64,000 bases of DNA, taken from the NCBI GenBank assembly GCA_031701365.1, contig GCA_031701365.1_4118.1. One strand, given 5' to 3'. The notes under the pieces were generated by a model that searched no databases, had not been told where the DNA came from, and saw nothing but the letters and a program-made list of their open reading frames with translations. The position numbers were made by a program, and so were the translations under genes. The DNA comes from Escherichia coli (lineage in GTDB: Bacteria > Pseudomonadota > Gammaproteobacteria > Enterobacterales > Enterobacteriaceae). Shown piece by piece: positions 1 through 46,606 of this stretch; positions within the stretch are counted from its first letter, which is position 1; each line of letters begins with the position of its first letter.

Positions 1-88
1 GTATTCCACGCAGTAAGTACGAAAAAAGTAGTTGCCATTGATAGTAAAGTACTGTAATATAGTTTCATTAACTCAAGGAGTCAATACA

Positions 89-673
89 ATGCGTAACTAT
101 ACTAAATTCATCCGTTCACTTCATGCAATGGAAACTAATAAAGAGATCCTTACAGCTTGTCGGTTAGCTGGTCTGGAGATCGTCGGTGCGGGTTCTTCCC
201 GTATTGTATTCGCTTTAAATGATCGGTTAGTGATTAAGGTCGCTAATAGTGATGCTGGCGTAGATCAAAATGAAACTGAATGTAAGGTATGGAATTTTTT
301 AGATTATGACCGTCCGCACCTTAAACAGTACTTTGCAAAGGTGCATATGCATTTATGCGATCCTGATAATCTGTTTATTGTTATGGATCGTTTGAGTATT
401 GCAAGCAAAGGTAGTGCAAAGCACATAACGGCCTGTAATGAATTAAAGTACAATGCTAAACGTAAAACTATTGAACGCCAACACCATTTTGCCGATGCAC
501 TACAACACGTCGATGATACATTATCAACACTAACGATCATTGATATCAGCAAGACGAACATAGGCCAGGATCGCAACGGCTTGATTAAAGTACTTGATTA
601 CGGTTTAACCCGCAATATCTGGAATCAGTACTATAAAAAGCGTGATGTAAAAACCGTAACAATAACACGATAA
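89..673 (+). CDS. putative protein kinase-like protein
   Basis: ORF 32-673; likely start ATG 89 after AAGGAG. Gly-rich loop GAGSSRIVF, VIKV lysine, DISKTNIGQD catalytic-loop-like and DYG (DFG-like) motifs. Confidence 0.45.
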   Translation: MRNYTKFIRSLHAMETNKEILTACRLAGLEIVGAGSSRIVFALNDRLVIKVANSDAGVDQNETECKVWNFLDYDRPHLKQYFAKVHMHLCDPDNLFIVMDRLSIASKGSAKHITACNELKYNAKRKTIERQHHFADALQHVDDTLSTLTIIDISKTNIGQDRNGLIKVLDYGLTRNIWNQYYKKRDVKTVTITR

Positions 674-687
674 AAAAGATTAAAAAA

Positions 688-716
688 GGGATTGACTCAG
701 GTCAGTCCCTTTGCTA
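688..716 (+). terminator. rho-independent terminator-like hairpin
   Basis: GGGATTGAC-tcag-GTCAGTCCC inverted repeat followed by T-rich tract. Confidence 0.5.
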
Positions 717-744
717 TTATATATTCATTGAGAGATAACTCACT

Positions 745-775
745 GACCCATAGGGTGCGGAAGTGTATCTATTAT
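745..775 (+). promoter_or_regulatory. conserved intergenic box, copy 1
   Basis: CCCATAGGGTGCGGAAGTGTATCT; near-identical copy at 2665-2690, each downstream of a hairpin and upstream of a promoter cassette. Confidence 0.4.
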
Positions 776-809
776 ATAAGTATTCAGTACTGAAAACTAT
801 TTTATAAAA

Positions 810-875
810 AGTACTTGCATTGTACTTAGAATCAAGTATAATGTTTTATATCGAGAGGGGGAAATGGTTCTCCCT
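810..875 (+). promoter_or_regulatory. PeSL-like cassette 1: early-type promoter plus 5-prime UTR stem-loop
   Basis: -35 TTGCAT 815-820, 16-bp spacer, -10 TATAAT 837-842; hairpin AGGGGGAA-atgg-TTCTCCCT 855-874 just upstream of RBS. Confidence 0.6.
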
Positions 876-896
876 GGTACATTAAGGAATAAAATC

Positions 897-1118
897 ATGA
901 CTACGATGACTTGCGTTCACGCTTCAAATCTTCTGAATGATGCAGCATTTAAAGCAGGTGAAGAATATCAATGCTATCGGGATGAAAATAAAAAAGTTTT
1001 CGTCGTTGATGCTAACGGTTTCCATATTGAATTACAATCCGGCTTCACTGGTGTTGATGGTAAATCAGTATGGGGCGTACAGGACGATAACGGTACATAT
1101 CATTTTAAACGTAATTAA
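897..1118 (+). CDS. hypothetical small early protein
   Basis: ORF 864-1118, start moved to ATG 897 after AAGGA RBS downstream of cassette 1. Confidence 0.6.
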   Translation: MTTMTCVHASNLLNDAAFKAGEEYQCYRDENKKVFVVDANGFHIELQSGFTGVDGKSVWGVQDDNGTYHFKRN

Positions 1119-1121
1119 GTA

Positions 1122-1180
1122 TTGACAAAGTATATCAGTACTGTATAATAGTTTACATCAAGGGGAGAATAGTTCTCCCC
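1122..1180 (+). promoter_or_regulatory. PeSL-like cassette 2
   Basis: -35 TTGACA 1122-1127, TG-extended -10 TATAAT 1144-1149; hairpin GGGGAGA-atagt-TCTCCCC 1162-1180. Confidence 0.6.
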
Positions 1181-1202
1181 ACCAATAAAAGGAAACAAAA
1201 TT

Positions 1203-1475
1203 ATGTCCAGCTACTCCGCTACTATGATTATTAAAGATATGAACGGTAATCCTACTTCTGCTGGTGGATCATTTGGTAACATTAACTTAGATGGTCGGTT
1301 ATCAATTGAATCAGCCATCAATGCCGCGAAAGAAGTTTTTAAGAATGAATGTACTGTAAGCAAGCTGGATTATATGGGCTTCGCTATCGAGAAAACTAAT
1401 CGTTTTGTGGACTACAAAAAACCACTGATGATCGATACTAACCTGAAAGCTAACGAAGTGGAATACTTATTATGA
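1203..1475 (+). CDS. hypothetical small early protein
   Basis: ORF with AAAGGA RBS; downstream of cassette 2. Confidence 0.65.
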   Translation: MSSYSATMIIKDMNGNPTSAGGSFGNINLDGRLSIESAINAAKEVFKNECTVSKLDYMGFAIEKTNRFVDYKKPLMIDTNLKANEVEYLL

Positions 1476-1663
1476 CAGTAGAAGAAGTTAAAAAAGTACT
1501 GGCAGTACTACGCTATCATAATCATTGTAAGGTGAAGAATGATCCTGATTATCTTGATTCATCGCTGGAAGAGGATACACTACAAGCAATAAGCCATATG
1601 CAAAAAATGCTTAAGCGTATGACCGAAAAGAATAGGCCGGACTATATAGGAAATAAAATTTAA
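1472..1663 (+). CDS. hypothetical small protein
   Basis: ORF whose start overlaps upstream stop (ATGA), translationally coupled. Confidence 0.55.
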   Translation: MTVEEVKKVLAVLRYHNHCKVKNDPDYLDSSLEEDTLQAISHMQKMLKRMTEKNRPDYIGNKI

Positions 1664-1670
1664 AAAGTAC

Positions 1671-1727
1671 TTGCATTGTAAGTAAAACAAAGTATAATGT
1701 TTTGCATAGGGGGAGATATCCTCCCCC
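1671..1727 (+). promoter_or_regulatory. PeSL-like cassette 3
   Basis: -35 TTGCAT 1671-1676, -10 TATAAT 1693-1698; hairpin GGGGGAG-atatc-CTCCCCC 1709-1727. Confidence 0.6.
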
Positions 1728-1746
1728 ACTAATAAGGAGTACTAAA

Positions 1747-1971
1747 ATGGCTAACTTTGATGAACTGATGCGGGAAGTAGCTACCCTGGCAGAAGAGAAG
1801 AAATCATTTGATTCTATCTATAACACCGCTTACAGTGATTCAGTACTGGCATGTACTCAGGATCAAAAAGATGAACTGATCGCCACCTATCATGAAGCAT
1901 GGAAGTATTACCGCCAATGGGAGAAAGAAGAAAGCGAGTCTACCATCAACGGCCTCAATAATCTAATCTAA
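1747..1971 (+). CDS. hypothetical small early protein
   Basis: ORF 1702-1971, start moved to ATG 1747 after AAGGAG RBS. Confidence 0.65.
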   Translation: MANFDELMREVATLAEEKKSFDSIYNTAYSDSVLACTQDQKDELIATYHEAWKYYRQWEKEESESTINGLNNLI

Positions 1972-2046
1972 AGTTTTATTTCAGTACTATTATCATAGCG
2001 TGATAGTACTGTTGTGATAACTTTACTAACTACAAGGGGAAACATA

Positions 2047-2304
2047 ATGGAACAGTTTAAAACGTATCGGGTAAATCCAATCGCCACAGCCTACGTAGAA
2101 GACCATAAAACATTACCAGTACAGACACCAATCAAAGGCCGTATCTATCGTGCTATGCAGTGGAATAACGCCTATAATGGCTATAAAGCGGTATCCGCTG
2201 CAATGTACTTAGGGGATGGCGAATGGTTTGATCCAAATAATCCTGGTGCACTCGATAGTACTGAAAAAATGAAATGGGCCGACTATATCGAAGATATCTC
2301 ATAA
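2047..2304 (+). CDS. hypothetical small protein (MYLGDGE motif)
   Basis: ORF 2014-2304, start at ATG 2047; shares MYLGDGE motif with ORF 21801-22109. Confidence 0.6.
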   Translation: MEQFKTYRVNPIATAYVEDHKTLPVQTPIKGRIYRAMQWNNAYNGYKAVSAAMYLGDGEWFDPNNPGALDSTEKMKWADYIEDIS

Positions 2305-2311
2305 AAACTAT

Positions 2312-2373
2312 TTGACAGTACTACAAGATAATGTATAATGTTTTACATAGAGCGGGGGAATAGTTCTCCCGCA
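2312..2373 (+). promoter_or_regulatory. PeSL-like cassette 4
   Basis: -35 TTGACA 2312-2317, TG-extended -10 TATAAT 2334-2339; imperfect hairpin GCGGGGGA..TCTCCCGC 2352-2373. Confidence 0.6.
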
Positions 2374-2392
2374 CCTTTAGGAGTAAAACATT

Positions 2393-2593
2393 ATGTCAAT
2401 CGCTAACGAATTGGTTGCAGTACTGAATGAAGCAAAAGCCAACTGCATCGATGTACAGATCAAAGAGCTTGGCAATGGCTTGATCGGCTGTACATGTTCA
2501 GTTCAAACGGCTACCGATTATCGGGAAGTGGAATCACTCGAATCACTGGTACGGTATATTAAAATCCTGGTAGAAGATTGGAGAATCATCTAA
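2393..2593 (+). CDS. hypothetical small early protein
   Basis: ORF with TAGGAG RBS downstream of cassette 4. Confidence 0.65.
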   Translation: MSIANELVAVLNEAKANCIDVQIKELGNGLIGCTCSVQTATDYREVESLESLVRYIKILVEDWRII

Positions 2594-2611
2594 CAAAAAA
2601 GAATAAAAAAA

Positions 2612-2640
2612 GGAGTTGACTTCGGTCCGCTCCTTTAGTA
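2612..2640 (+). terminator. terminator-like hairpin
   Basis: GGAGTTGAC-ttcg-GTCCGCTCC followed by TTT. Confidence 0.45.
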
Positions 2641-2664
2641 CTATATACGCATAGACAAAAACTA

Positions 2665-2690
2665 GCCCACAGGGTGCAGAGAAGTATCTG
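2665..2690 (+). promoter_or_regulatory. conserved intergenic box, copy 2
   Basis: CCCACAGGGTGCAGAGAAGTATCT, homologous to 745-775. Confidence 0.4.
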
Positions 2691-2766
2691 TAAGATAGTT
2701 AATAACGGTGAGTAACTATCTGCTGGTGGATGTAATTCCAGTACTCAAAACTATTTCAAAAAAGTA

Positions 2767-2830
2767 TTGACAAAGTATAGCAGTACTGCAATAATGTATC
2801 TCGTAGGGCGGCAATGGTGCGACGGCCCAC
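2767..2830 (+). promoter_or_regulatory. PeSL-like cassette 5
   Basis: -35 TTGACA 2767-2772, -10 AATAAT about 2790-2795; GC-rich imperfect hairpin GGGCGGC..GGCCC 2806-2828. Confidence 0.5.
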
Positions 2831-2848
2831 AAAGTTAGGAGCTTCATC

Positions 2849-3175
2849 ATGAGTACTTCAATCGCTATCGTTAAAGCTTTCATCCGTACCAATTTCGACC
2901 GCATTACTGTTGATGGTAATGATCGGGAAGTAGAATACTCTTTCATTGTTGCACAAACCGCAAACGGTGCACGCTATATCTTAAACGATAGTGAAGCTAA
3001 CCACTACTTCTATAATAAAGGATTACACTACATCCCTAGCGAAGTAGTCTACACTAAGATGAATAAGCTGGTAGACAAGATTAACGCTAAAGGTACTATC
3101 GATTTACAGTACTGGACCGAAACAGATCCAGAATACGGATCACATCGTTACCTGAATCCAGGTATTAAAATGTAA
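2849..3175 (+). CDS. hypothetical small early protein
   Basis: ORF with AGGAG RBS. Confidence 0.65.
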   Translation: MSTSIAIVKAFIRTNFDRITVDGNDREVEYSFIVAQTANGARYILNDSEANHYFYNKGLHYIPSEVVYTKMNKLVDKINAKGTIDLQYWTETDPEYGSHRYLNPGIKM

Positions 3176-3182
3176 AAAGTAC

Positions 3183-3245
3183 TTGCATAGTACTTAGAAT
3201 CAAGTATAATGTTTTACATAGAGAGGGGGAAATGGTTCTCCCTCC
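3183..3245 (+). promoter_or_regulatory. PeSL-like cassette 6, near-identical to cassette 1
   Basis: -35 TTGCAT 3183-3188, -10 TATAAT 3205-3210; hairpin AGGGGGAAATGGTTCTCCCT 3223-3242; about 70 bp nearly identical to 808-875. Confidence 0.6.
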
Positions 3246-3264
3246 TAAATTAAGGAGTTTTATC

Positions 3265-3666
3265 ATGACCTTCTCAATCACTTCCTTCGCTGACGTTTTA
3301 GTACTGGCTCGGACTTTTGGTAAAGATGCACTGGAGTACGCTGTAAGTAATGGCACTCTCCAACCGGAACAATGCCGCATCATTGGAAACTGTAAACGTT
3401 GGGCGGTATCCAATACTATTGCACTAGAAAACTTCAACGATGGTAACAATGAGTATTCAGTTGATGCAGTATTCGAAGCCGTTGATCTTGGCGGTATCTA
3501 TAACACTAACCTAAATGATGTGCGTATCGTTCGCACGGGGTTCGGTGCTTATGATGTATCTATCCGTGAAGCTATGAACACCGGATACATTAGTAAGGAC
3601 TTACTTGCTCACATCATGCAGCTATGGACGGAACGTAACGAAGCACGCACTATCTTAGGACTATAA
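3265..3666 (+). CDS. hypothetical protein
   Basis: ORF 3232-3666, start moved to ATG 3265 after AAGGAG RBS. Confidence 0.65.
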   Translation: MTFSITSFADVLVLARTFGKDALEYAVSNGTLQPEQCRIIGNCKRWAVSNTIALENFNDGNNEYSVDAVFEAVDLGGIYNTNLNDVRIVRTGFGAYDVSIREAMNTGYISKDLLAHIMQLWTERNEARTILGL

Positions 3667-3690
3667 GCATTACACATCACCAAACATCAT

Positions 3691-3710
3691 AGGCCGCTCT
3701 CTAGCGGCCT
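3691..3710 (+). terminator. palindromic hairpin, weak terminator candidate
   Basis: AGGCCGCT-ctct-AGCGGCCT; no clear U-tract. Confidence 0.35.
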
Positions 3711-3734
3711 TAACTATATCAGGAGGGCATACAT

Positions 3735-3944
3735 ATGTTCTATACAGTATACAGCGTTCTAGGTACGATTGCTGGCGTACATGATAACGTCGATGATGCT
3801 ATGCGTACAGTACTAACACAAGTCCCCCTCAAGCCTAAGACTGTTAAGCAGATGACAGCACGACTAACCAGGGCGGGCGATGGCGTGGAAGTATGGCAGG
3901 ACTACGGGGATACACAGATAATCGTTAGCGTAACGAAGGATTAA
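3735..3944 (+). CDS. hypothetical small protein
   Basis: ORF with AGGAGG RBS. Confidence 0.55.
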   Translation: MFYTVYSVLGTIAGVHDNVDDAMRTVLTQVPLKPKTVKQMTARLTRAGDGVEVWQDYGDTQIIVSVTKD

Positions 3945-4135
3945 TGCGTAAAGGGATCTAGTACTGATTCAGAAAAAAGTCAAGGCGTTTTTAAAATTAT
4001 GCGTTAAAAAAATGCATAGGTAATCCCTTGACTTTTTTGAAATAAAAGGGATTGGACTATGGCAAAATGCGTAGGGGGCTAAAGGGCGGGTAACCTTAGC
4101 GACTTCGATAAAGGGGTATTACGAATAAAATGTTA

Positions 4136-4163
4136 TTGACTTTTTATACAATTCATATATTAT
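4136..4163 (+). promoter_or_regulatory. sigma70-like promoter upstream of family A array
   Basis: -35 TTGACT 4136-4141, 16-bp spacer, -10 TATTAT 4158-4163. Confidence 0.45.
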
Positions 4164-4193
4164 ATGATTGATATTATTTTCAAGGGAGTCCCT

Positions 4194-4391
4194 ATGCGTA
4201 TTTTAACTCAAGCAGAACACCACGAAAGACTTATCAATAACATGGCTATGATAATGTATAAGTCACATGAACGTGGTATTGCCTATAAGCGTGAATTAAT
4301 TATGGCACTATTCATTGGAACTAACTTTCAGGAAAGGTATGTCAAGGATTGGATTTGGTATTTAATTGAAGATGTAACGAGTAAACTATGA
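4194..4391 (+). CDS. family A small protein 1
   Basis: C-terminal FIGTNFQERYV..IEDVTSKL; start moved to ATG 4194. Confidence 0.65.
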   Translation: MRILTQAEHHERLINNMAMIMYKSHERGIAYKRELIMALFIGTNFQERYVKDWIWYLIEDVTSKL

Positions 4392-4588
4392 AAATGCGTA
4401 AATTAACCGAAAAAGAATATCAATCACTGTTACGTAAAAACTACGTAAAGATTTACAATACAGACACACACGTAGAACGAATGGAGTTATACCTTTTGAT
4501 TACATTGGGAACTAACTATCAGGATGCATGGGTGATTCAATATATGGATGCATTGAAAAATGAAATATTGTCCACGAGGAAACAATGA
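4388..4588 (+). CDS. family A small protein 2
   Basis: LGTNYQDAWV motif; ATGA overlap with upstream stop. Confidence 0.65.
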   Translation: MKMRKLTEKEYQSLLRKNYVKIYNTDTHVERMELYLLITLGTNYQDAWVIQYMDALKNEILSTRKQ

Positions 4589-4794
4589 AAACTATAACAC
4601 GAACCCAATCATTCGGACTTATCTTGAAATACATGGACTTAATGGTGGATATCAGCAAAGACCTGCCTAAAACTGCAATTGAAGTTGCAAGAGCAGAGAT
4701 CCGCATGTTGGCTGTACTGAACACAAACCATCAGGAAGAGTATGTTGACGATTGGATTCGATTTTTAATAGAAGATATTAAGAGTAAACTATGA
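4585..4794 (+). CDS. family A small protein 3
   Basis: LNTNHQEEYV..IEDIKSKL. Confidence 0.65.
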   Translation: MKTITRTQSFGLILKYMDLMVDISKDLPKTAIEVARAEIRMLAVLNTNHQEEYVDDWIRFLIEDIKSKL

Positions 4795-5003
4795 TTATAT
4801 TAACACCTGAAGAATATAAGAAACGTTTTAAATCTGTCCAGGCTGAAATATTACTTATATACCTTTCAAATGCAGATCTTAACTTATCAAGGGTAATGGA
4901 GAAGGATTTACTTATGGGTGCATTTTTGGATACAGACTTTCAGGAGTATTATGTAGGAGAATACTTTATTGCACTTCAGAACCACATTAAGAGTAAACTA
5001 TGA
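4791..5003 (+). CDS. family A small protein 4
   Basis: LDTDFQEYYV..IKSKL. Confidence 0.65.
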   Translation: MIILTPEEYKKRFKSVQAEILLIYLSNADLNLSRVMEKDLLMGAFLDTDFQEYYVGEYFIALQNHIKSKL

Positions 5004-5215
5004 TTATTCTAGAAAAATCATATCAATATACTGAACGCATCGCTGCCAGACAACTTGAAATCCTCATAATATACGAAGAGACTTCTGATTTAAACTTAGC
5101 CGAGGTATTGGAAAATGAAATACTTTTGGGTGCATTCTTGGGAACAGACTATCAGGAGTATTATGAGGAAAAGTATTTGTCATCTCTTGAGAAATACGTC
5201 AGGAGCAAACTATGA
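5000..5215 (+). CDS. family A small protein 5
   Basis: LGTDYQEYYE..VRSKL. Confidence 0.65.
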   Translation: MIILEKSYQYTERIAARQLEILIIYEETSDLNLAEVLENEILLGAFLGTDYQEYYEEKYLSSLEKYVRSKL

Positions 5216-6527: not shown

Positions 6528-6726
6528 GCATGAGTATTACAATAGGTTAAGAACGATACAAGGAAAAGTCTCGTGGACTTTTTTAGATAATTCTATTGCA
6601 GAAGCGGACCGATGTGTTATAATAGCTGAAATGAAGCTATTACTCTTCATTGGGACAAACTATCAAAGTATCTACATAGACGCATGGTTAAGCAGCTTAC
6701 GTCTGAAGTCGGTGAGTTTAAAATGA
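6511..6726 (+). CDS. family A small protein 12
   Basis: IGTNYQSIYI; start ATG 6511 (MKILTEHEY). Confidence 0.6.
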   Translation: MKILTEHEYYNRLRTIQGKVSWTFLDNSIAEADRCVIIAEMKLLLFIGTNYQSIYIDAWLSSLRLKSVSLK

Positions 6727-16393: not shown

Positions 16394-16734
16394 GTAGATT
16401 TTCAGTTTATATAGTAAACGTCAGTAAAGATGGTAGTTTAATTGAATTTGATGTAGTTGATAACAATGATAATTCATATGGTATTAAGGTACAGGACAAT
16501 GATGTGCAGTTCAGTACAAGAACAAATTTTGAAAATCCAGTCCAAGTTCCTAATTTCATAGAAGATGAAGCAGCACGTTTCCAATACGAAACGGCATATG
16601 ACAATGTACATATGCATATTATTATGCAAACGAGTTTAGTTCAATTAGTTCCTTTGTTCAGACAAAATATATATGTACATGAAGTGTCGATTAATGGCAT
16701 TCAAAGTTCCGTTTTGTTCGATACAAATATGTAA
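16390..16734 (+). CDS. family B protein 13
   Basis: AARFQYETAYD. Confidence 0.55.
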   Translation: MSRFSVYIVNVSKDGSLIEFDVVDNNDNSYGIKVQDNDVQFSTRTNFENPVQVPNFIEDEAARFQYETAYDNVHMHIIMQTSLVQLVPLFRQNIYVHEVSINGIQSSVLFDTNM

Positions 16735-16744
16735 GGAAAGTACA

Positions 16745-17296
16745 ATGAGTTCAATGAGTTTATTAGATACATTAGAAAAAGACAGAAGTGCAATTAAGCG
16801 TTTAAAAGAGCAAGTACAAAAGATTGTATACAACGTTGATAAGTTTGAGGTTCCCGGAAGATTTGGTGATATTTCCCATACGGAGATCAAATCCCTTAAG
16901 TCAGATTTGTTGATTAAAAATAAAAATGGGTTGATTTTAGTTTTGAGTTCAGATATGATGGGGGCAACACATAGTTATAATGCCGTATCGGTGCGTTCCG
17001 AGTGTGAAGGTATATATCTATCACAGGGTTTCAATAGCGAGACACAGGTTTGTTTTTGTGATGCAGTACATGACCCTATGAAGTTCACGAGAAGTGAAGC
17101 CCAAGCGTTATTAGAGCTATCAGACGAGAGTTTGTTTCAGTACAGTACAATGTATGACAATGATAAGATTCGTTGTATGTACGCTGTAAAGCATTATACA
17201 CAGGAGTTTTCTGGATTTGCATACCTTTTAGTTAGAACCAATACCAGATATATTGATATGTTAGAAGATTACATCGATAAAGTTGTTAATGTATGA
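16745..17296 (+). CDS. family B protein 14
   Basis: ESLFQYSTMYD; start ATG 16745 after AAGGA. Confidence 0.6.
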   Translation: MSSMSLLDTLEKDRSAIKRLKEQVQKIVYNVDKFEVPGRFGDISHTEIKSLKSDLLIKNKNGLILVLSSDMMGATHSYNAVSVRSECEGIYLSQGFNSETQVCFCDAVHDPMKFTRSEAQALLELSDESLFQYSTMYDNDKIRCMYAVKHYTQEFSGFAYLLVRTNTRYIDMLEDYIDKVVNV

Positions 17297-17308: not shown

Positions 17309-17488
17309 ATGATGCTAATGAAAGAGTTATTTGAAGATCAGTTCAATACATATGTGGATAATATTCTTTATTCCAGTCGTGCCAGTCAACGAGGAAATCG
17401 TGCTTACAATATTGATTACCTATTAGTGGTGCTGAGTTCACAGTACACCAATGCGGTACAAAGGGTTTATTATGAAAAGTGCAAGTAA
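17309..17488 (+). CDS. hypothetical small protein (59 aa, not in ORF track)
   Basis: Hand-translated MMLMKELFEDQF...VYYEKCK. Confidence 0.35.
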   Translation: MMLMKELFEDQFNTYVDNILYSSRASQRGNRAYNIDYLLVVLSSQYTNAVQRVYYEKCK

Positions 17489-17681
17489 TAGTGATATTGC
17501 AAAGGAGAAGTTTAAGTGCAGTTTAGATTACGGTTTAAATAATTTTCTTACATGCACAATGTACAGGGATGATGATTATGAACAATCCGTAATTTCGTTG
17601 CACAGATATTTCGAAATAATTTACGCAAGATATCTTAGAAGGTTAGATGGGATAGGGGATTGGAATTATGATTACGTTTGA
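17472..17681 (+). CDS. hypothetical small protein
   Basis: ORF 17451-17681; likely start ATG 17472. Confidence 0.4.
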   Translation: MKSASNSDIAKEKFKCSLDYGLNNFLTCTMYRDDDYEQSVISLHRYFEIIYARYLRRLDGIGDWNYDYV

Positions 17682-17892
17682 AGAGCCGGAAGTGGTATAT
17701 TGCTTTAGTGTGAAAGGTTTTGAATACATGATGGATTCGATTTTGAAGGATACATATTTGGTTCAGATTGCAGTTGCACATAATGCAGATAATGCATTAC
17801 AGCGAGTATTGAATATATACGAGAGGACGAGTCGAAGGCTTTGTGCAATGAAAAGGATTGAAGAAATAAAGGTTTCTAGGCTGAATAAATAG
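17668..17892 (+). CDS. hypothetical small protein
   Basis: ORF only. Confidence 0.4.
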   Translation: MITFEEPEVVYCFSVKGFEYMMDSILKDTYLVQIAVAHNADNALQRVLNIYERTSRRLCAMKRIEEIKVSRLNK

Positions 17893-18090
17893 AGACGTTT
17901 CATTTTGACAGGCCGCTGGAGGGGGTCAAAAAAATTTCCGCTGAAAAACATGCTAAGGTATATGTTTAATATAAAGTTTTATATTGTGTTTTTCAGAGTA
18001 CAGTTCATGTTTCCTTAAACAAAAAATACCCCGCCACCGAACGTGCTCTTTATATTGGAGTTTACCTTATTAATTATAGTAGAGATTGAG

Positions 18091-21060: not shown

Positions 21061-21490
21061 AAAAGCAAAAGAACTACATGGATACGTTGAAGATATAAAG
21101 GCAGAAAAGTTCAAAGAAGTGTACAAAGCCGAGAACGGTAACTACTACAAAGATGAAATGTATAATAACTCCGTTGGAGTAAGGGTTATTCTTGGGTTGA
21201 ATTCCAATAGCCCAGTGTCGTATTCGGAATACAATAGAGATGCAGAATTCATTAGTTATGTTGAAAATGGTAGCATTCGTTTTATTAATAGACAAAAACC
21301 ATTAACATTGAATTGTGAAGTACTGAATGGTCCGTGGAATAGTGAAGAGTATTACTTCCAAAACAGTACTGTATATGATGATGAAGTACTTGAAGCATTA
21401 GTTATTATGTGGTACTTCAAGAGTGTTAGCTGTCCTCGATTTTATTTGGATTTCGAAGAACTTCGTAAAGATCCAGAAGGTATAGAATGA
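21038..21490 (+). CDS. family B protein 22
   Basis: EEYYFQNSTVYD; N-terminus MSLQSALEKAKE. Confidence 0.65.
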   Translation: MSLQSALEKAKELHGYVEDIKAEKFKEVYKAENGNYYKDEMYNNSVGVRVILGLNSNSPVSYSEYNRDAEFISYVENGSIRFINRQKPLTLNCEVLNGPWNSEEYYFQNSTVYDDEVLEALVIMWYFKSVSCPRFYLDFEELRKDPEGIE

Positions 21491-21801
21491 AAAACTTATT
21501 CAGTGTTCAGTACGTCCCTGGTGAAATTGGTTTATTATATCTATTTGACCATGATAATTCATTATTACTAGTAGTGAAGAAATGCCAAGCTAGTTCGTTT
21601 GTTGAATACATTCACGATAGTGAATACATTCCTGATTTCCTAGAGTGTGATTATCACGATGAACATGAATCATTTATTTTTCAGGAATCACTAGTATGGG
21701 ATAAATCGATCAACTTCTTTACGTTAATTGAATTACAAAAGCAGGTGAAGTATTATTGGGATTACTTAATTACACAGGATTACATTGAGATTGAAACATA
21801 A
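21487..21801 (+). CDS. family B protein 23
   Basis: ESFIFQESLVWD. Confidence 0.6.
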   Translation: MKNLFSVQYVPGEIGLLYLFDHDNSLLLVVKKCQASSFVEYIHDSEYIPDFLECDYHDEHESFIFQESLVWDKSINFFTLIELQKQVKYYWDYLITQDYIEIET

Positions 21802-22109
21802 TGACAAAAAATGAATTTGATTCACTTTGTACGGTTTATAATTCATTGACAGAAATACCTGACTTTATTAATTACATTTCAGCGTTAAATCATATTATGC
21901 ATAGTTTTGAACAATCGTTTGAAGAGAAATATGCAGGTAGAAAAGTTCTATGTCATATGTCAATGTACTTGGGAGATGGTGAGCCTTACACTACCAGTAC
22001 TACATGTGAAATAAAAAAATATAATATATTATTGGGCACAATAGAATTCACAGTATCCAATGGTGGTAGTTATATGTACTTTAGAGATGGAGTGGTTGAA
22101 TTATTATGA
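21801..22109 (+). CDS. hypothetical small protein (MYLGDGE motif)
   Basis: EEKYAGRKVLCHMSMYLGDGE; related to 2047-2304. Confidence 0.55.
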   Translation: MTKNEFDSLCTVYNSLTEIPDFINYISALNHIMHSFEQSFEEKYAGRKVLCHMSMYLGDGEPYTTSTTCEIKKYNILLGTIEFTVSNGGSYMYFRDGVVELL

Positions 22110-44736: not shown

Positions 44737-44999
44737 ATTATAAAGATTTCCTACTAACATACAAGATTATTCGAGATTTAGCACACGACAATGATAGCCC
44801 TAGTCTAGAAGACACATGCACTGAAATGATTCATACGATTCGTGGTAAGATTAAAAAAAAATTCAGTACTGTTATTATTGGTGATGACCATGCAGAATTT
44901 TCTGATATAATCATTAGACGTGATGGTAAAGTTGAGGTTCAGTACTACACTGATTTTGGATTTACCAGTATTCCGTTGGAGATATTCCCTTGGGATTAA
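44733..44999 (+). CDS. family C small protein 2
   Basis: YKDFLLTYKIIRDL. Confidence 0.6.
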   Translation: MNYKDFLLTYKIIRDLAHDNDSPSLEDTCTEMIHTIRGKIKKKFSTVIIGDDHAEFSDIIIRRDGKVEVQYYTDFGFTSIPLEIFPWD

Positions 45000-45301
45000 A
45001 TTTAAATGATATACAATTCACTTATAAGATCCTATATGATTTGTATGATGTATACCTTGTTAGTAACAAAATAGGTTCACATAACCCATACAAAGAACAA
45101 CCATTTATTGATTTATATATTGAGTACTTAGATTCAGTAGGTGAATATATAAAAAAGAATTACAGTACTTTTATCGACGGAAATGATATATTCGAGTTCT
45201 CTGGAGTTAAATCATACAATGGGATTATCCATGTTGAATTTCTTGAAATAACCGATAGGGGATTTATCGAGATTAAAGTTGTGAAGTTGGTGAATTTATA
45301 A
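44990..45301 (+). CDS. family C small protein 3
   Basis: LNDIQFTYKILYDLYD; start uncertain (track implies non-ATG start). Confidence 0.5.
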   Translation: MGLNLNDIQFTYKILYDLYDVYLVSNKIGSHNPYKEQPFIDLYIEYLDSVGEYIKKNYSTFIDGNDIFEFSGVKSYNGIIHVEFLEITDRGFIEIKVVKLVNL

Positions 45302-45311
45302 GAGGTTACAT

Positions 45312-45623
45312 ATGTTATTAAATGATATACAATTCACATACAAATTTTTGTATATCCAATACGCTACGGTTGATGCTGGAGAATATCTCTACGGTGAAAT
45401 CTATCGTTCGGTATGGATAAAGTTTTTGGATGAATTACATGAATATTACCATGATTTGTGTATAGTTCGTGATAATAAAATATACAAATTCCGCGATATT
45501 GTTAGTCATAGCGGTAAGCTACGATTGGAATTAAGTACTGATAGTGATGTTGATTGGATTGGTGTAAATTTACTGGAGTTGGAGAATGAAAAACAACTTA
45601 AAGGAAATACAAGTATTTTATAA
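45312..45623 (+). CDS. family C small protein 4
   Basis: MLLNDIQFTYKFLY. Confidence 0.6.
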   Translation: MLLNDIQFTYKFLYIQYATVDAGEYLYGEIYRSVWIKFLDELHEYYHDLCIVRDNKIYKFRDIVSHSGKLRLELSTDSDVDWIGVNLLELENEKQLKGNTSIL

Positions 45624-45870
45624 ATTCTTATACTTGTCATATGTAAAAGATGAGTACTATGAAAGTGTGTATTATTTTTTATGGCAACATTACCGTACTA
45701 TAGTAAGAGATTTATATATAGGAAAATCTATCATATCCAATGGTGAAAGATGTATATGTACTGATGTTGTTAGTTTTAATGGTTCTTTAACACTGTGTTT
45801 CAGATGCGATAATAATAGTGGGTCATTTTCATTAAACGTATATCAGTTAGAAGGAATAAATTTTGAATAA
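45586..45870 (+). CDS. family C small protein 5
   Basis: LKEIQVFYKFLYLSY. Confidence 0.55.
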   Translation: MKNNLKEIQVFYKFLYLSYVKDEYYESVYYFLWQHYRTIVRDLYIGKSIISNGERCICTDVVSFNGSLTLCFRCDNNSGSFSLNVYQLEGINFE

Positions 45871-46063
45871 ATGTCCATATTGTAACAGTACTCAATTAGC
45901 TCGTTTCCGTTTAGATTCAGACTGGGCGACGGGTGCTGGTGATTTCTTCCCTATCAATGATGATGCAGAATACACCGAAGAACAACACAAAGATTTTGAT
46001 AAATCATGGCGACCTGACATTGAGTGCATTTATTGCCTTAATTGTGAGCGTGTTCATGACTAA
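45863..46063 (+). CDS. small zinc-ribbon protein
   Basis: CPYC...CIYCLNC cysteine pairs. Confidence 0.5.
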   Translation: MNKCPYCNSTQLARFRLDSDWATGAGDFFPINDDAEYTEEQHKDFDKSWRPDIECIYCLNCERVHD

Positions 46064-46319
46064 AGCTGAACTAATAGTTCATACATATAAAATGATATCA
46101 AGTACTGAGTTATCATATAGTGCAGATAATCCAGTACTGGATTATTTTGTTGAATTATTGAAAGAGCATTATATTGGTAAATCACTGATTCTTAATAATA
46201 TTAATTTCACGGTAAAGGATGTAGCACCTGGAAAAAACGTACTAATAGTATGTGTTACTTCATCTGATAACCCAGTATACCCAATATCAATAATTTTTGA
46301 GATATTAGGAGATTTATGA
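46057..46319 (+). CDS. family C-like small protein 6
   Basis: ORF 45933-46319, start ATG 46057 (MTKAELIVHTYKMIS). Confidence 0.45.
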
Positions 46320-46606
46320 ATATCATTTTAATGCAGAAAACATATGCTATATTGGTGAAAGATTATTCCATTACTTTCGATTCACAAGAAAGTGCTCTAC
46401 ATAACCTATACAAAAACGTAACACAAGAATACAGAAATATGTTTTCTGACTTAGTAGTAGGAAGGTATTTCAGTACTAGAAAATACCCAAAACTTCAAAT
46501 AGTTGATGTTTCTTTTTATTTCAATGGTCATATTACTATTCATAGTTTAGACCAAGATTCAACAACGTACTTAAACTTTTCATTTGATGAGGTAACATTT
46601 TTATGA
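46316..46606 (+). CDS. family C-like small protein 7
   Basis: MNIILMQKTYAILVKDY. Confidence 0.5.
   Translation: MNIILMQKTYAILVKDYSITFDSQESALHNLYKNVTQEYRNMFSDLVVGRYFSTRKYPKLQIVDVSFYFNGHITIHSLDQDSTTYLNFSFDEVTFL

Follow-up and report, generated by a model that had tools for sequence, protein, structure and literature searches.

A stretch of 64,000 nucleotides filed under Escherichia coli (one strand of contig GCA_031701365.1_4118.1 in assembly GCA_031701365.1; this whole stretch is called the window below) begins with a small gene that raises a simple question: does it encode a protein kinase, and if so, of what kind? An earlier note on this DNA, made from the letters alone, had proposed a possible small kinase-like gene at the left edge. 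The open reading frame (ORF) is confirmed as a gene by its ATG start, a Shine-Dalgarno sequence, homologues and a ratio of non-synonymous to synonymous substitution rates (dN/dS) of about 0.2. It is the first gene of the window and the orthologue of gp308 of Escherichia phage 121Q, of gp063 of phage Sharanji (WNN14351.1) and of gp043 of Klebsiella phage Muenster. Against the 121Q and Sharanji orthologues dN/dS lies between 0.18 and 0.22, which indicates a real gene under purifying selection. A longer ORF starting with TTG (positions 32-673) was rejected: it overlaps the stop codon of the upstream gene (55-57), and the orthologues are all annotated from the ATG. Sequence comparisons and a structure model together support the answer that the protein is a member of the protein-kinase-like (PKL) superfamily with all of its catalytic residues intact.

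The motifs read in the earlier note, namely a Gly-rich loop, VIKV, an acidic helix, DISKTNIGQD and DYG, are all found in this order and at the expected places by direct reading of the protein (Table 1). Their conservation was counted in an alignment of 55 diverse homologues, which have 18-49% identity to the query, save for one close orthologue at 87%. R38, K50, G57, Q60, E64, D170 and G172 are invariant in this alignment, and A52, N61, D152 and G159 are nearly so. The catalytic lysine and aspartates are thus all in place, and what is conserved comprises the catalytic residues of canonical kinases together with a triad peculiar to the family, R38, Q60 and N61. In a larger collection of 264 family sequences, a signature of the N-terminal part is present in 255 and one of the C-terminal part in 243.

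Table 1. Features of the kinase-like gene and its immediate surroundings (window positions; fractions are counts in the 55-member alignment)
Feature	Position	Strand	Remarks
Minimal protein-kinase-like gene	89..673	+	ATG 89-91, TAA 671-673; 194 aa (ORF reading)
Gly-rich loop GAGSSRIVF, residues 33-41	185..211	+	G33 40/55, G35 48/55, S36 49/55, R38 55/55
VIKV on strand beta3, residues 48-51	230..241	+	K50 (nt 236-238) 55/55, candidate ATP-anchoring lysine
Start of helix C, GVDQNETE, G57-E64	257..280	+	Signature G57-x-x-Q60-N61-x-x-E64; G57, Q60 and E64 each 55/55, N61 52/55; helix 55-73 in the model
Catalytic-loop equivalent DISKTNIGQD, residues 152-161	542..571	+	D152 54/55, G159 54/55
DYG, DFG equivalent, residues 170-172	596..604	+	D170 and G172 55/55; Y171 43/55, F in 9/55
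Upstream gene, 3' end (121Q gp307 homologue)	1..57	+	Cut by the window edge; 31 nt before the kinase ATG
Shine-Dalgarno sequence AAGGAG	75..80	+	8 nt before the ATG (direct sequence reading)
12-bp hairpin	685..712	+	12 nt past the stop codon; dG -18.5 kcal/mol, z -4.5

Each of these motifs can be placed next to its counterpart in known kinases. The Gly-rich loop forms the turn between strands beta1 and beta2 in the structure model and is aligned with GSGTCGQV of MKK7, with the invariant R38 at the position of the third glycine. K50 lies in a strand of the model (residues 47-52) and is aligned with the lysine of the 'IK' pair in PKC-theta and with VIKV of the gp0.7 kinase of phage T7 (T7K). E64 is a candidate partner for this lysine, and the i, i+3, i+4, i+7 spacing of G57, Q60, N61 and E64 suggests that they share one face of helix C. 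The segment DISKTNIGQD aligns residue for residue with D-I-K-P-S-N of MKK4 and MKK7, and also with DMHSGN of T7K, making D152 a candidate catalytic base and N157 a candidate metal ligand. Finally, DYG is aligned with the DFG of MKK4, MKK7 and PKC-theta and with the aspartate of the DPV motif in T7K, and D170 is the candidate Mg-binding aspartate.

The homology behind these alignments is remote, and how well it is seen depends on how many sequences are used. With the query alone, the Pkinase family of Pfam is matched at E 0.085 and MKK4 in the PDB at E 0.45 (phmmer), both sub-threshold. The weak single-sequence matches are almost all to kinases, and in them the catalytic loop and the DFG region align residue for residue. 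A profile built from 10 homologues finds MKK7 in the PDB at E 2.8e-5; it has 442 matches at E<=10, and protein kinases make up 58 of the 60 listed. A deeper family profile finds MKK4 at E 2.2e-5. Individual family members match Pfam Pkinase at up to 5.7e-6 (best score 26.4 bits), only 5 of the 55 doing so at E<=0.01, and nothing unrelated recurs. Weak matches of family members to the Pfam families ABC1, YrbL-PhoP_reg and AceK are informative at the level of the superfamily only.

The earlier note had called for a check against kinase folds, and a kinase-like structure was found by AlphaFold2, Foldseek and the profile searches alike. A first AlphaFold2 model, made with a 10-sequence alignment, had a predicted local distance difference test score (pLDDT) of 56.5 and was discarded; the model used here, made with the 55-sequence alignment, has a pLDDT of 94.4 and a predicted template modelling score (pTM) of 0.89. 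It shows the bilobal arrangement that defines the PKL superfamily, with a beta-sheet N-lobe and helix C followed by a helical C-lobe, and the nucleotide-binding and catalytic residues that go with this fold are conserved. The kinase interpretation stands because the predicted fold is kinase-like. In a Foldseek search of the PDB the model matches Lpg2603, PRPK, APH(2'') and NleH2 at E about 1e-4, with TMq <= 0.48. In BFVD the RaK2 orthologue comes at a template modelling (TM) score of 0.86, followed by many phage entries named 'protein kinase'. Among the BFVD matches are also T7-type kinases (TMq 0.53-0.59, E about 2e-6), and no solved kinase is structurally closer than these. Two further BFVD matches, A0A1L2CVG3 and A0A1L2CVI5 at E 2e-9 and 3e-9, both come from Pectobacterium phage CBB, and these predicted folds suggest that two paralogues can exist within one jumbo phage.

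What kind of kinase this might be is best seen from how little of the canonical fold is left. In the model two N-terminal helices (residues 4-12 and 17-26) precede strands beta1 to beta3 (30-34, 38-42, 47-52). Helix C (55-73) is followed by a short helix (76-81), a further strand (96-100) and two helices (108-120 and 129-145). The catalytic loop (152-157), two short strands (158-160 and 166-168) and DYG then lead into a last helix (175-193), which is predicted with lower confidence. The result is a five-stranded N-lobe and a reduced C-lobe consisting of helices D and E, the catalytic loop, DYG and one terminal helix. The protein stops 22 residues past DYG and lacks an activation segment, an APE motif and helices F to I, so that none of the subdomains VIII-XI of the eukaryotic-type protein kinases (ePKs; activation segment with APE, aspartate of helix F, helices G-I) is present. 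This short form is the norm of the family and no truncation artefact, because the 264 family sequences have a median length of 221 aa and a tail behind D[YF]G whose median is 15 residues.

Compared with eukaryotic-type Ser/Thr and Tyr kinases (MKK7, MKK4, PKC-theta, BTK, PknB), the order and alignment of the motifs and the bilobal fold are the same, whereas several details differ. There is no His-Arg before D152, an arginine (R38) replaces the third glycine of the Gly-rich loop, and the beta2-beta3 hairpin is shorter, with 15 residues from the second glycine to the lysine as against 20 in MKK7. An architectural parallel is found in the type III effectors OspG of Shigella and NleH1/2 of enteropathogenic and enterohaemorrhagic E. 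coli, which have the same minimal kinase fold without subdomains VIII-XI and are active kinases despite this (PMC12756638). The kinase domain of NleH2 is matched by Foldseek at E 4.7e-4 (TM 0.39/0.45). No specific sequence match to OspG or NleH was found in the PDB searches, so the similarity is one of architecture and not of family membership. These effectors also act in eukaryotic cells, while the protein discussed here is a phage protein in a bacterium. OspG shows that activity in kinases of this kind can require binding to a host partner (E2~Ub in its case), and the present protein may plausibly work in this way too. Other small atypical enzymes with a kinase fold (Rio, Bud32, Lpg2603, APH, Ark1, SAICAR synthetase) have other C-terminal elements and other substrates, and there is no sequence match above noise to Rio1/Rio2, Bud32/PRPK, Lpg2603, APH(2''), Ark1/ArkI or SAICAR synthetase.

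The other obvious comparison is with T7K, which phosphorylates host proteins broadly and disarms host defences (PMC13645617). The two proteins have much in common. Their motifs come in the same order and in register, from 'AG[LF]xxxGxG' via VIKV and D-x-x-x-x-N to the metal-binding aspartate. Both have a short kinase domain with little after the DFG equivalent, the autophosphorylation sites of T7K directly following that motif, and both are encoded by phages near a genome end, in a region transcribed early by the host RNA polymerase (a timing that for the present gene is deduced from its position). At the sequence level the relation is distant: a direct blastp comparison with T7K gives a non-significant E of 1.8, the family profile matches the single T7K sequence at E 0.024, and a profile-profile alignment with hhalign, which spans 138 columns from the Gly-rich loop to the metal-binding aspartate, reaches 74% probability and E 2.8e-5. 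To judge from these comparisons, the similarity to T7K is at the level of the superfamily, no closer than to eukaryotic-type kinases, and the protein seems to belong to a different family and not to be a homologue of T7 gp0.7 in the ordinary sense. The hallmark of the T7K family is a DPV or DP motif in place of DFG (PMC13645617), whereas the present protein has DYG and 52 of the 55 aligned members have D[YF]G. Its own signature, GSSR ... K-x-A-x-N-x-x-G-x-x-QN-x-x-E, is lacking in T7K. The C-terminal shut-off and DNA-binding domain of the Autographiviridae T7K is absent here, as it is from the T7K homologues of jumbo phages.

Such homologues, with a 'DP' motif, have been reported in the jumbo phages Munch and G17 (PMC13645617), and it had to be decided if the present gene is one of them. 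This was rejected, since in phage Sharanji that role is filled by another gene. In the paper on Sharanji the T7K homologue is WNN14432.1. WNN14351.1 is given there as 'another protein kinase' whose function is unknown, and sequence comparison identifies the latter as the orthologue of the kinase gene in the window. The former, gp144 (224 aa; positions 21183-21857 of the Sharanji record L004, in a part of that genome lying outside the window), has DIHSSN ... ITDPLS and matches T7K by blastp at 3.5e-8, and it has no match to the window protein (E 0.045). No counterpart of gp144 was found in the 64-kb window. Since gp144 and the orthologue of the window gene are both present, Asteriusviruses carry two different minimal kinases. 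A tblastn match of T7K at window positions 45709-45849 (E 0.16) is noise within a family of small paralogous genes.

Taken as an enzyme, the protein is very likely an active, ATP-using member of the kinase fold, as its sequence and model indicate. Mg-ATP would be bound between the lobes by the Gly-rich loop, the K50-E64 pair, N157 and D170, and the gamma-phosphate would be passed to a substrate hydroxyl with D152 acting as base. The role of R38, Q60 and N61 may be to keep helix C in its active position. Control by phosphorylation of an activation loop is probably absent, because there is no activation segment. The enzyme could be constitutively active, or it could be switched on by a partner, in the way that E2~Ub activates OspG. 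The lack of subdomains VIII-XI also suggests a loose or partner-directed choice of substrate. The full reading, for which the chances seem about even, is that of a minimal kinase with protein substrates and a part in host takeover or in countering host defences: host RNA polymerase would make the kinase early, and host proteins, perhaps phage proteins too, would be phosphorylated, resulting in takeover or blunted defences. By analogy with the T7 kinase, though that belongs to another family, a role of this type is the most likely one.

A phosphotransferase of the kinase fold acting on something other than protein, such as an antibiotic, a nucleotide, a sugar, a lipid precursor or RNA, is a rather unlikely alternative. 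The missing parts speak for it, in that every subdomain with which ePKs dock a peptide is gone and there is no lysine at D+2, and APH(2'') and SAICAR synthase also rank high in the Foldseek results. A model exists in the archaeal Ark1/ArkI proteins, which have 173-216 aa, Ark1 being called an RNA kinase in PDB entry 8yv5. The profiles, however, favour protein kinases (MKK4, MKK6, MKK7, PKC-theta, BTK) over APH and other small-molecule kinases, and OspG and NleH, which are of similar size, are protein kinases, as is T7K. APH enzymes bind the drug with a helical subdomain, and a subdomain of this type is absent in this protein. Nor do genes of nucleotide or RNA metabolism adjoin the kinase gene. 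Its neighbours are small; nine match PHROGs to which no function is assigned, and the homologue of 121Q gp307 matches none.

Beyond the substrate, the chemistry itself could differ. SelO and SidJ-type enzymes have a kinase fold and carry out a different chemistry, and one could imagine AMPylation or some other nucleotidyl or group transfer here, with R38 and Q60/N61 holding the nucleotide in a non-canonical manner. These three residues are kept as strictly as the catalytic ones, and nothing in canonical kinases corresponds to them; the third position of the Gly-rich loop is normally a glycine there. This is nevertheless improbable, as none of the residues needed for phosphotransfer (K, E, D...N, DxG) is missing and they align with those of ordinary kinases, and no SelO-, SidJ- or Fic-like match appeared in the Pfam, PDB-profile or Foldseek searches. 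Very improbable, too, is a pseudokinase or scaffold with no catalytic activity, whose task would be to bind a nucleotide or a protein of the host, for instance so as to inhibit some host factor. Pseudokinases typically lose at least one of K, D and DFG, and the retention of all catalytic residues at 18-49% identity is the pattern of an enzyme, even if the fold is very reduced and NleH shows kinase-independent binding to RPS3. That kinase-like motifs arose by chance in a non-functional ORF, as single-sequence matches all above E 0.04 might suggest, has next to no probability and is refuted by profile matches at E ~2e-5, a confident fold, homologues in 60 phage records and at least 173 clusters, a dN/dS of ~0.2 and a good Shine-Dalgarno sequence.

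Several observations weigh against the reading of a minimal protein kinase with a role in takeover. On its own the sequence scores 12.7 bits against Pfam Pkinase (PF00069), for which the gathering cut-off is 31.7, and no Pfam or NCBIfam family covers the protein (the query and 55 members were scanned). The lysine at D+2 that is found in Ser/Thr kinases is missing; here K155 stands at D+3, and it is variable in the family. N157 is invariant among close relatives, and in distant members, which often have an asparagine one residue later (from the consensus of the hidden Markov model and a regular-expression count), it occupies no fixed column. The case for early expression is made from position and consensus promoters, and the site nearest the gene itself matches the consensus at 9/12. 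A T7K homologue is already carried by these phages, so there is no obvious need for a redundant kinase of broad specificity. A search of the literature found no report of an experimental assay on this protein or on a member of its family.

The surroundings of the gene give an idea of when it may be used. Co-transcription with the upstream gene is likely because the gap between the two is only 31 nt. A promoter of its own is doubtful: the candidate site TTGCCA-17-TAATAT at 32-60 is weak, with 9/12 consensus matches, and sits inside the upstream gene. Going upstream in 121Q, the first sigma-70-like sites are those before gp306 and gp307. Behind the gene, the hairpin at 685-712 is probably the end of the transcription unit. 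Its function as a terminator is something we infer, because the tail has no clean U-tract, and it overlaps a promoter-like site, TTGACT-17-TATTAT, at 692-720. The kinase gene would then probably close a short operon, with the start ahead of gp306 or gp307 and the end at this hairpin. The element consists of the 28-nt hairpin AAAGGGATTGACTCnGGTCAGTCCCTTT followed by GCTATTATAT (window 685-720), that is, a terminator-like stem with an embedded promoter-like site, and the 28-nt hairpin occurs twice in 121Q (record L001), at 3387-3414 and 6685-6712.

In related phages the gene lies within the direct terminal repeat. In vB_Ec-M-J the orthologue is found at 16690-17274, inside an annotated direct terminal repeat at 1-21525, and in Klebsiella phage Muenster the homologue at 17325-17909 is inside a terminal repeat of 20,030 bp (1-20030). 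The gene is present in two places in 10 of the phage records listed, as is expected when a gene in the repeat is written out at both ends. The left ~5 kb of the window (about 1-4900) should likewise be direct terminal repeat, as it is collinear with vB_Ec-M-J, and by extrapolation the boundary would be near 4900. Promoter-like sites are abundant in this part of the genome. The 121Q region has 24 sigma-70-like sites as against 12.4+-3.6 in shuffled sequences, including four perfect 12/12 matches just upstream, and over the whole window there are 55 on the + strand versus 22 on the other (shuffles 28+-5). PMC7318152 describes PA5oct, a relative of 121Q and RaK2, as relying on the host RNA polymerase. 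Early expression by the host RNA polymerase is probable because the orthologue in related phages lies in the terminal repeat among small genes, many of which have consensus sigma-70-type promoters in front of them, and it is reasonable to infer early expression of the kinase gene itself from its position and these consensus matches.

Downstream of the kinase gene, a module of promoter and 5' untranslated region is present in four copies on the + strand (window 814-880, 1122-1182, 2312-2372 and 3180-3245). Each consists of TTGACA or TTGCAT, a spacer of 16-17 nt, TATAAT, a conserved hairpin (GGGGAGAA...TTCTCCCC), a ribosome-binding site and the ATG of a small gene. Two of these hairpins fold far better than shuffled sequences (z -2.9 and -4.5), and the hairpins may act on the stability or the regulation of early mRNAs. 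From window 4164-5215 onward there are tandem small paralogues of ~66-75 aa ending in ...IEDxxSKL or similar, in an array that continues for dozens of genes in the 121Q record. Another set of tandem paralogues (~94-128 aa), several with an N-terminal DIQFTYK(I/F)LY-like motif, is found at 44990-46606. No tRNA genes were found in the 64-kb window.

As to where the gene comes from, the window belongs to a relative of phage 121Q (Asteriusvirus, 348 kb): its first 3 kb have 95.6% identity to that phage and ~89% to PBECO4, slurp01, JP4 and others. The identical protein (P0001) is filed as 'hypothetical protein QPL51_04540 [Escherichia coli]' on a contig of 347,166 bp, which is evidently a jumbo-phage genome inside a bacterial assembly. 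The presence of jumbo-phage genomes in bacterial assemblies has been remarked on for these phages (PMC13645617). A tblastn search found homologues in 60 of 50,697 phage records; of those listed, 59 have 310-386 kb and one, from a Klebsiella phage, has 52 kb. They include phages of Escherichia/Salmonella (Asteriusvirus), Klebsiella (RaK2, K64-1, Muenster) and Salmonella (Munch, 7t3), and further ones of Erwinia, Xanthomonas, Yersinia and Pectobacterium. The protein matches PHROG 4301, annotated as 'unknown function', at E 1.6e-39 (residues 1-191 against 11-188 of the 225 profile positions), and a literature search found no paper mentioning this PHROG.

An exhaustive profile search of 1.84 billion cluster representatives gave at least 173 matches at E<=1e-10 and 1,886 at E<=1e-3, most of those listed being 180-280 aa long, and the contexts of two distant members that were looked at are large-phage contigs. 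In addition, 20 family members from metagenomes (P0022, P0023, P0027, P0030, P0034, P0035 and 14 others) have 2-4 N-terminal signatures in tandem within single polypeptides of 419-969 aa, and most of them also carry matching copies of the C-terminal signature. The member with four modules, P0023 (L009), is on a contig of 4.8 kb, which is too short for its host or virus to be identified.

The kinase-like nature of these proteins is already recorded in GenBank entries and in one paper. The homologues are annotated as 'serine/threonine-protein kinase' in Turkey5 and Turkey3, as 'protein kinase domain-containing protein' in ph0011 and as 'putative protein kinase' in Munch, SE_PL, K64-1 and Muenster, where the record of gp043 cites an HHpred match to 6J5T_M at 99.9%. 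Most records, including those of 121Q (gp308) and PBECO4, say 'hypothetical'. The protein is best placed among the putative phage-encoded minimal protein kinases. If it is an ordinary early protein kinase, the practical value of the finding would be better annotation of these 'hypothetical' records.

For the biology of the phages, the finding means that jumbo phages of the 121Q/RaK2 type carry a second, unrelated minimal kinase, which in the phages checked is in the terminal repeat, a place where one would look for early genes. Few proteins that have a complete kinase catalytic set are smaller than this one of 194 aa, and for this reason it is a convenient object for questions about the minimal kinase core. 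T7K has recently been shown to be a broad anti-defence weapon, and the function and promiscuity of the kinases of jumbo phages have been stated to be open (PMC13645617). A possible, though rather unlikely, view is that the present protein is the first example of a large family of ~200-aa minimal kinases that is borne by phages and distinct from T7K, with a substrate class or chemistry differing from the promiscuous protein phosphorylation of T7K; it could then act on one particular host target, on RNA or on nucleotides, or work as a switch that a partner activates. Should this be true, takeover and anti-defence would be shared out between the two kinases that one phage carries.

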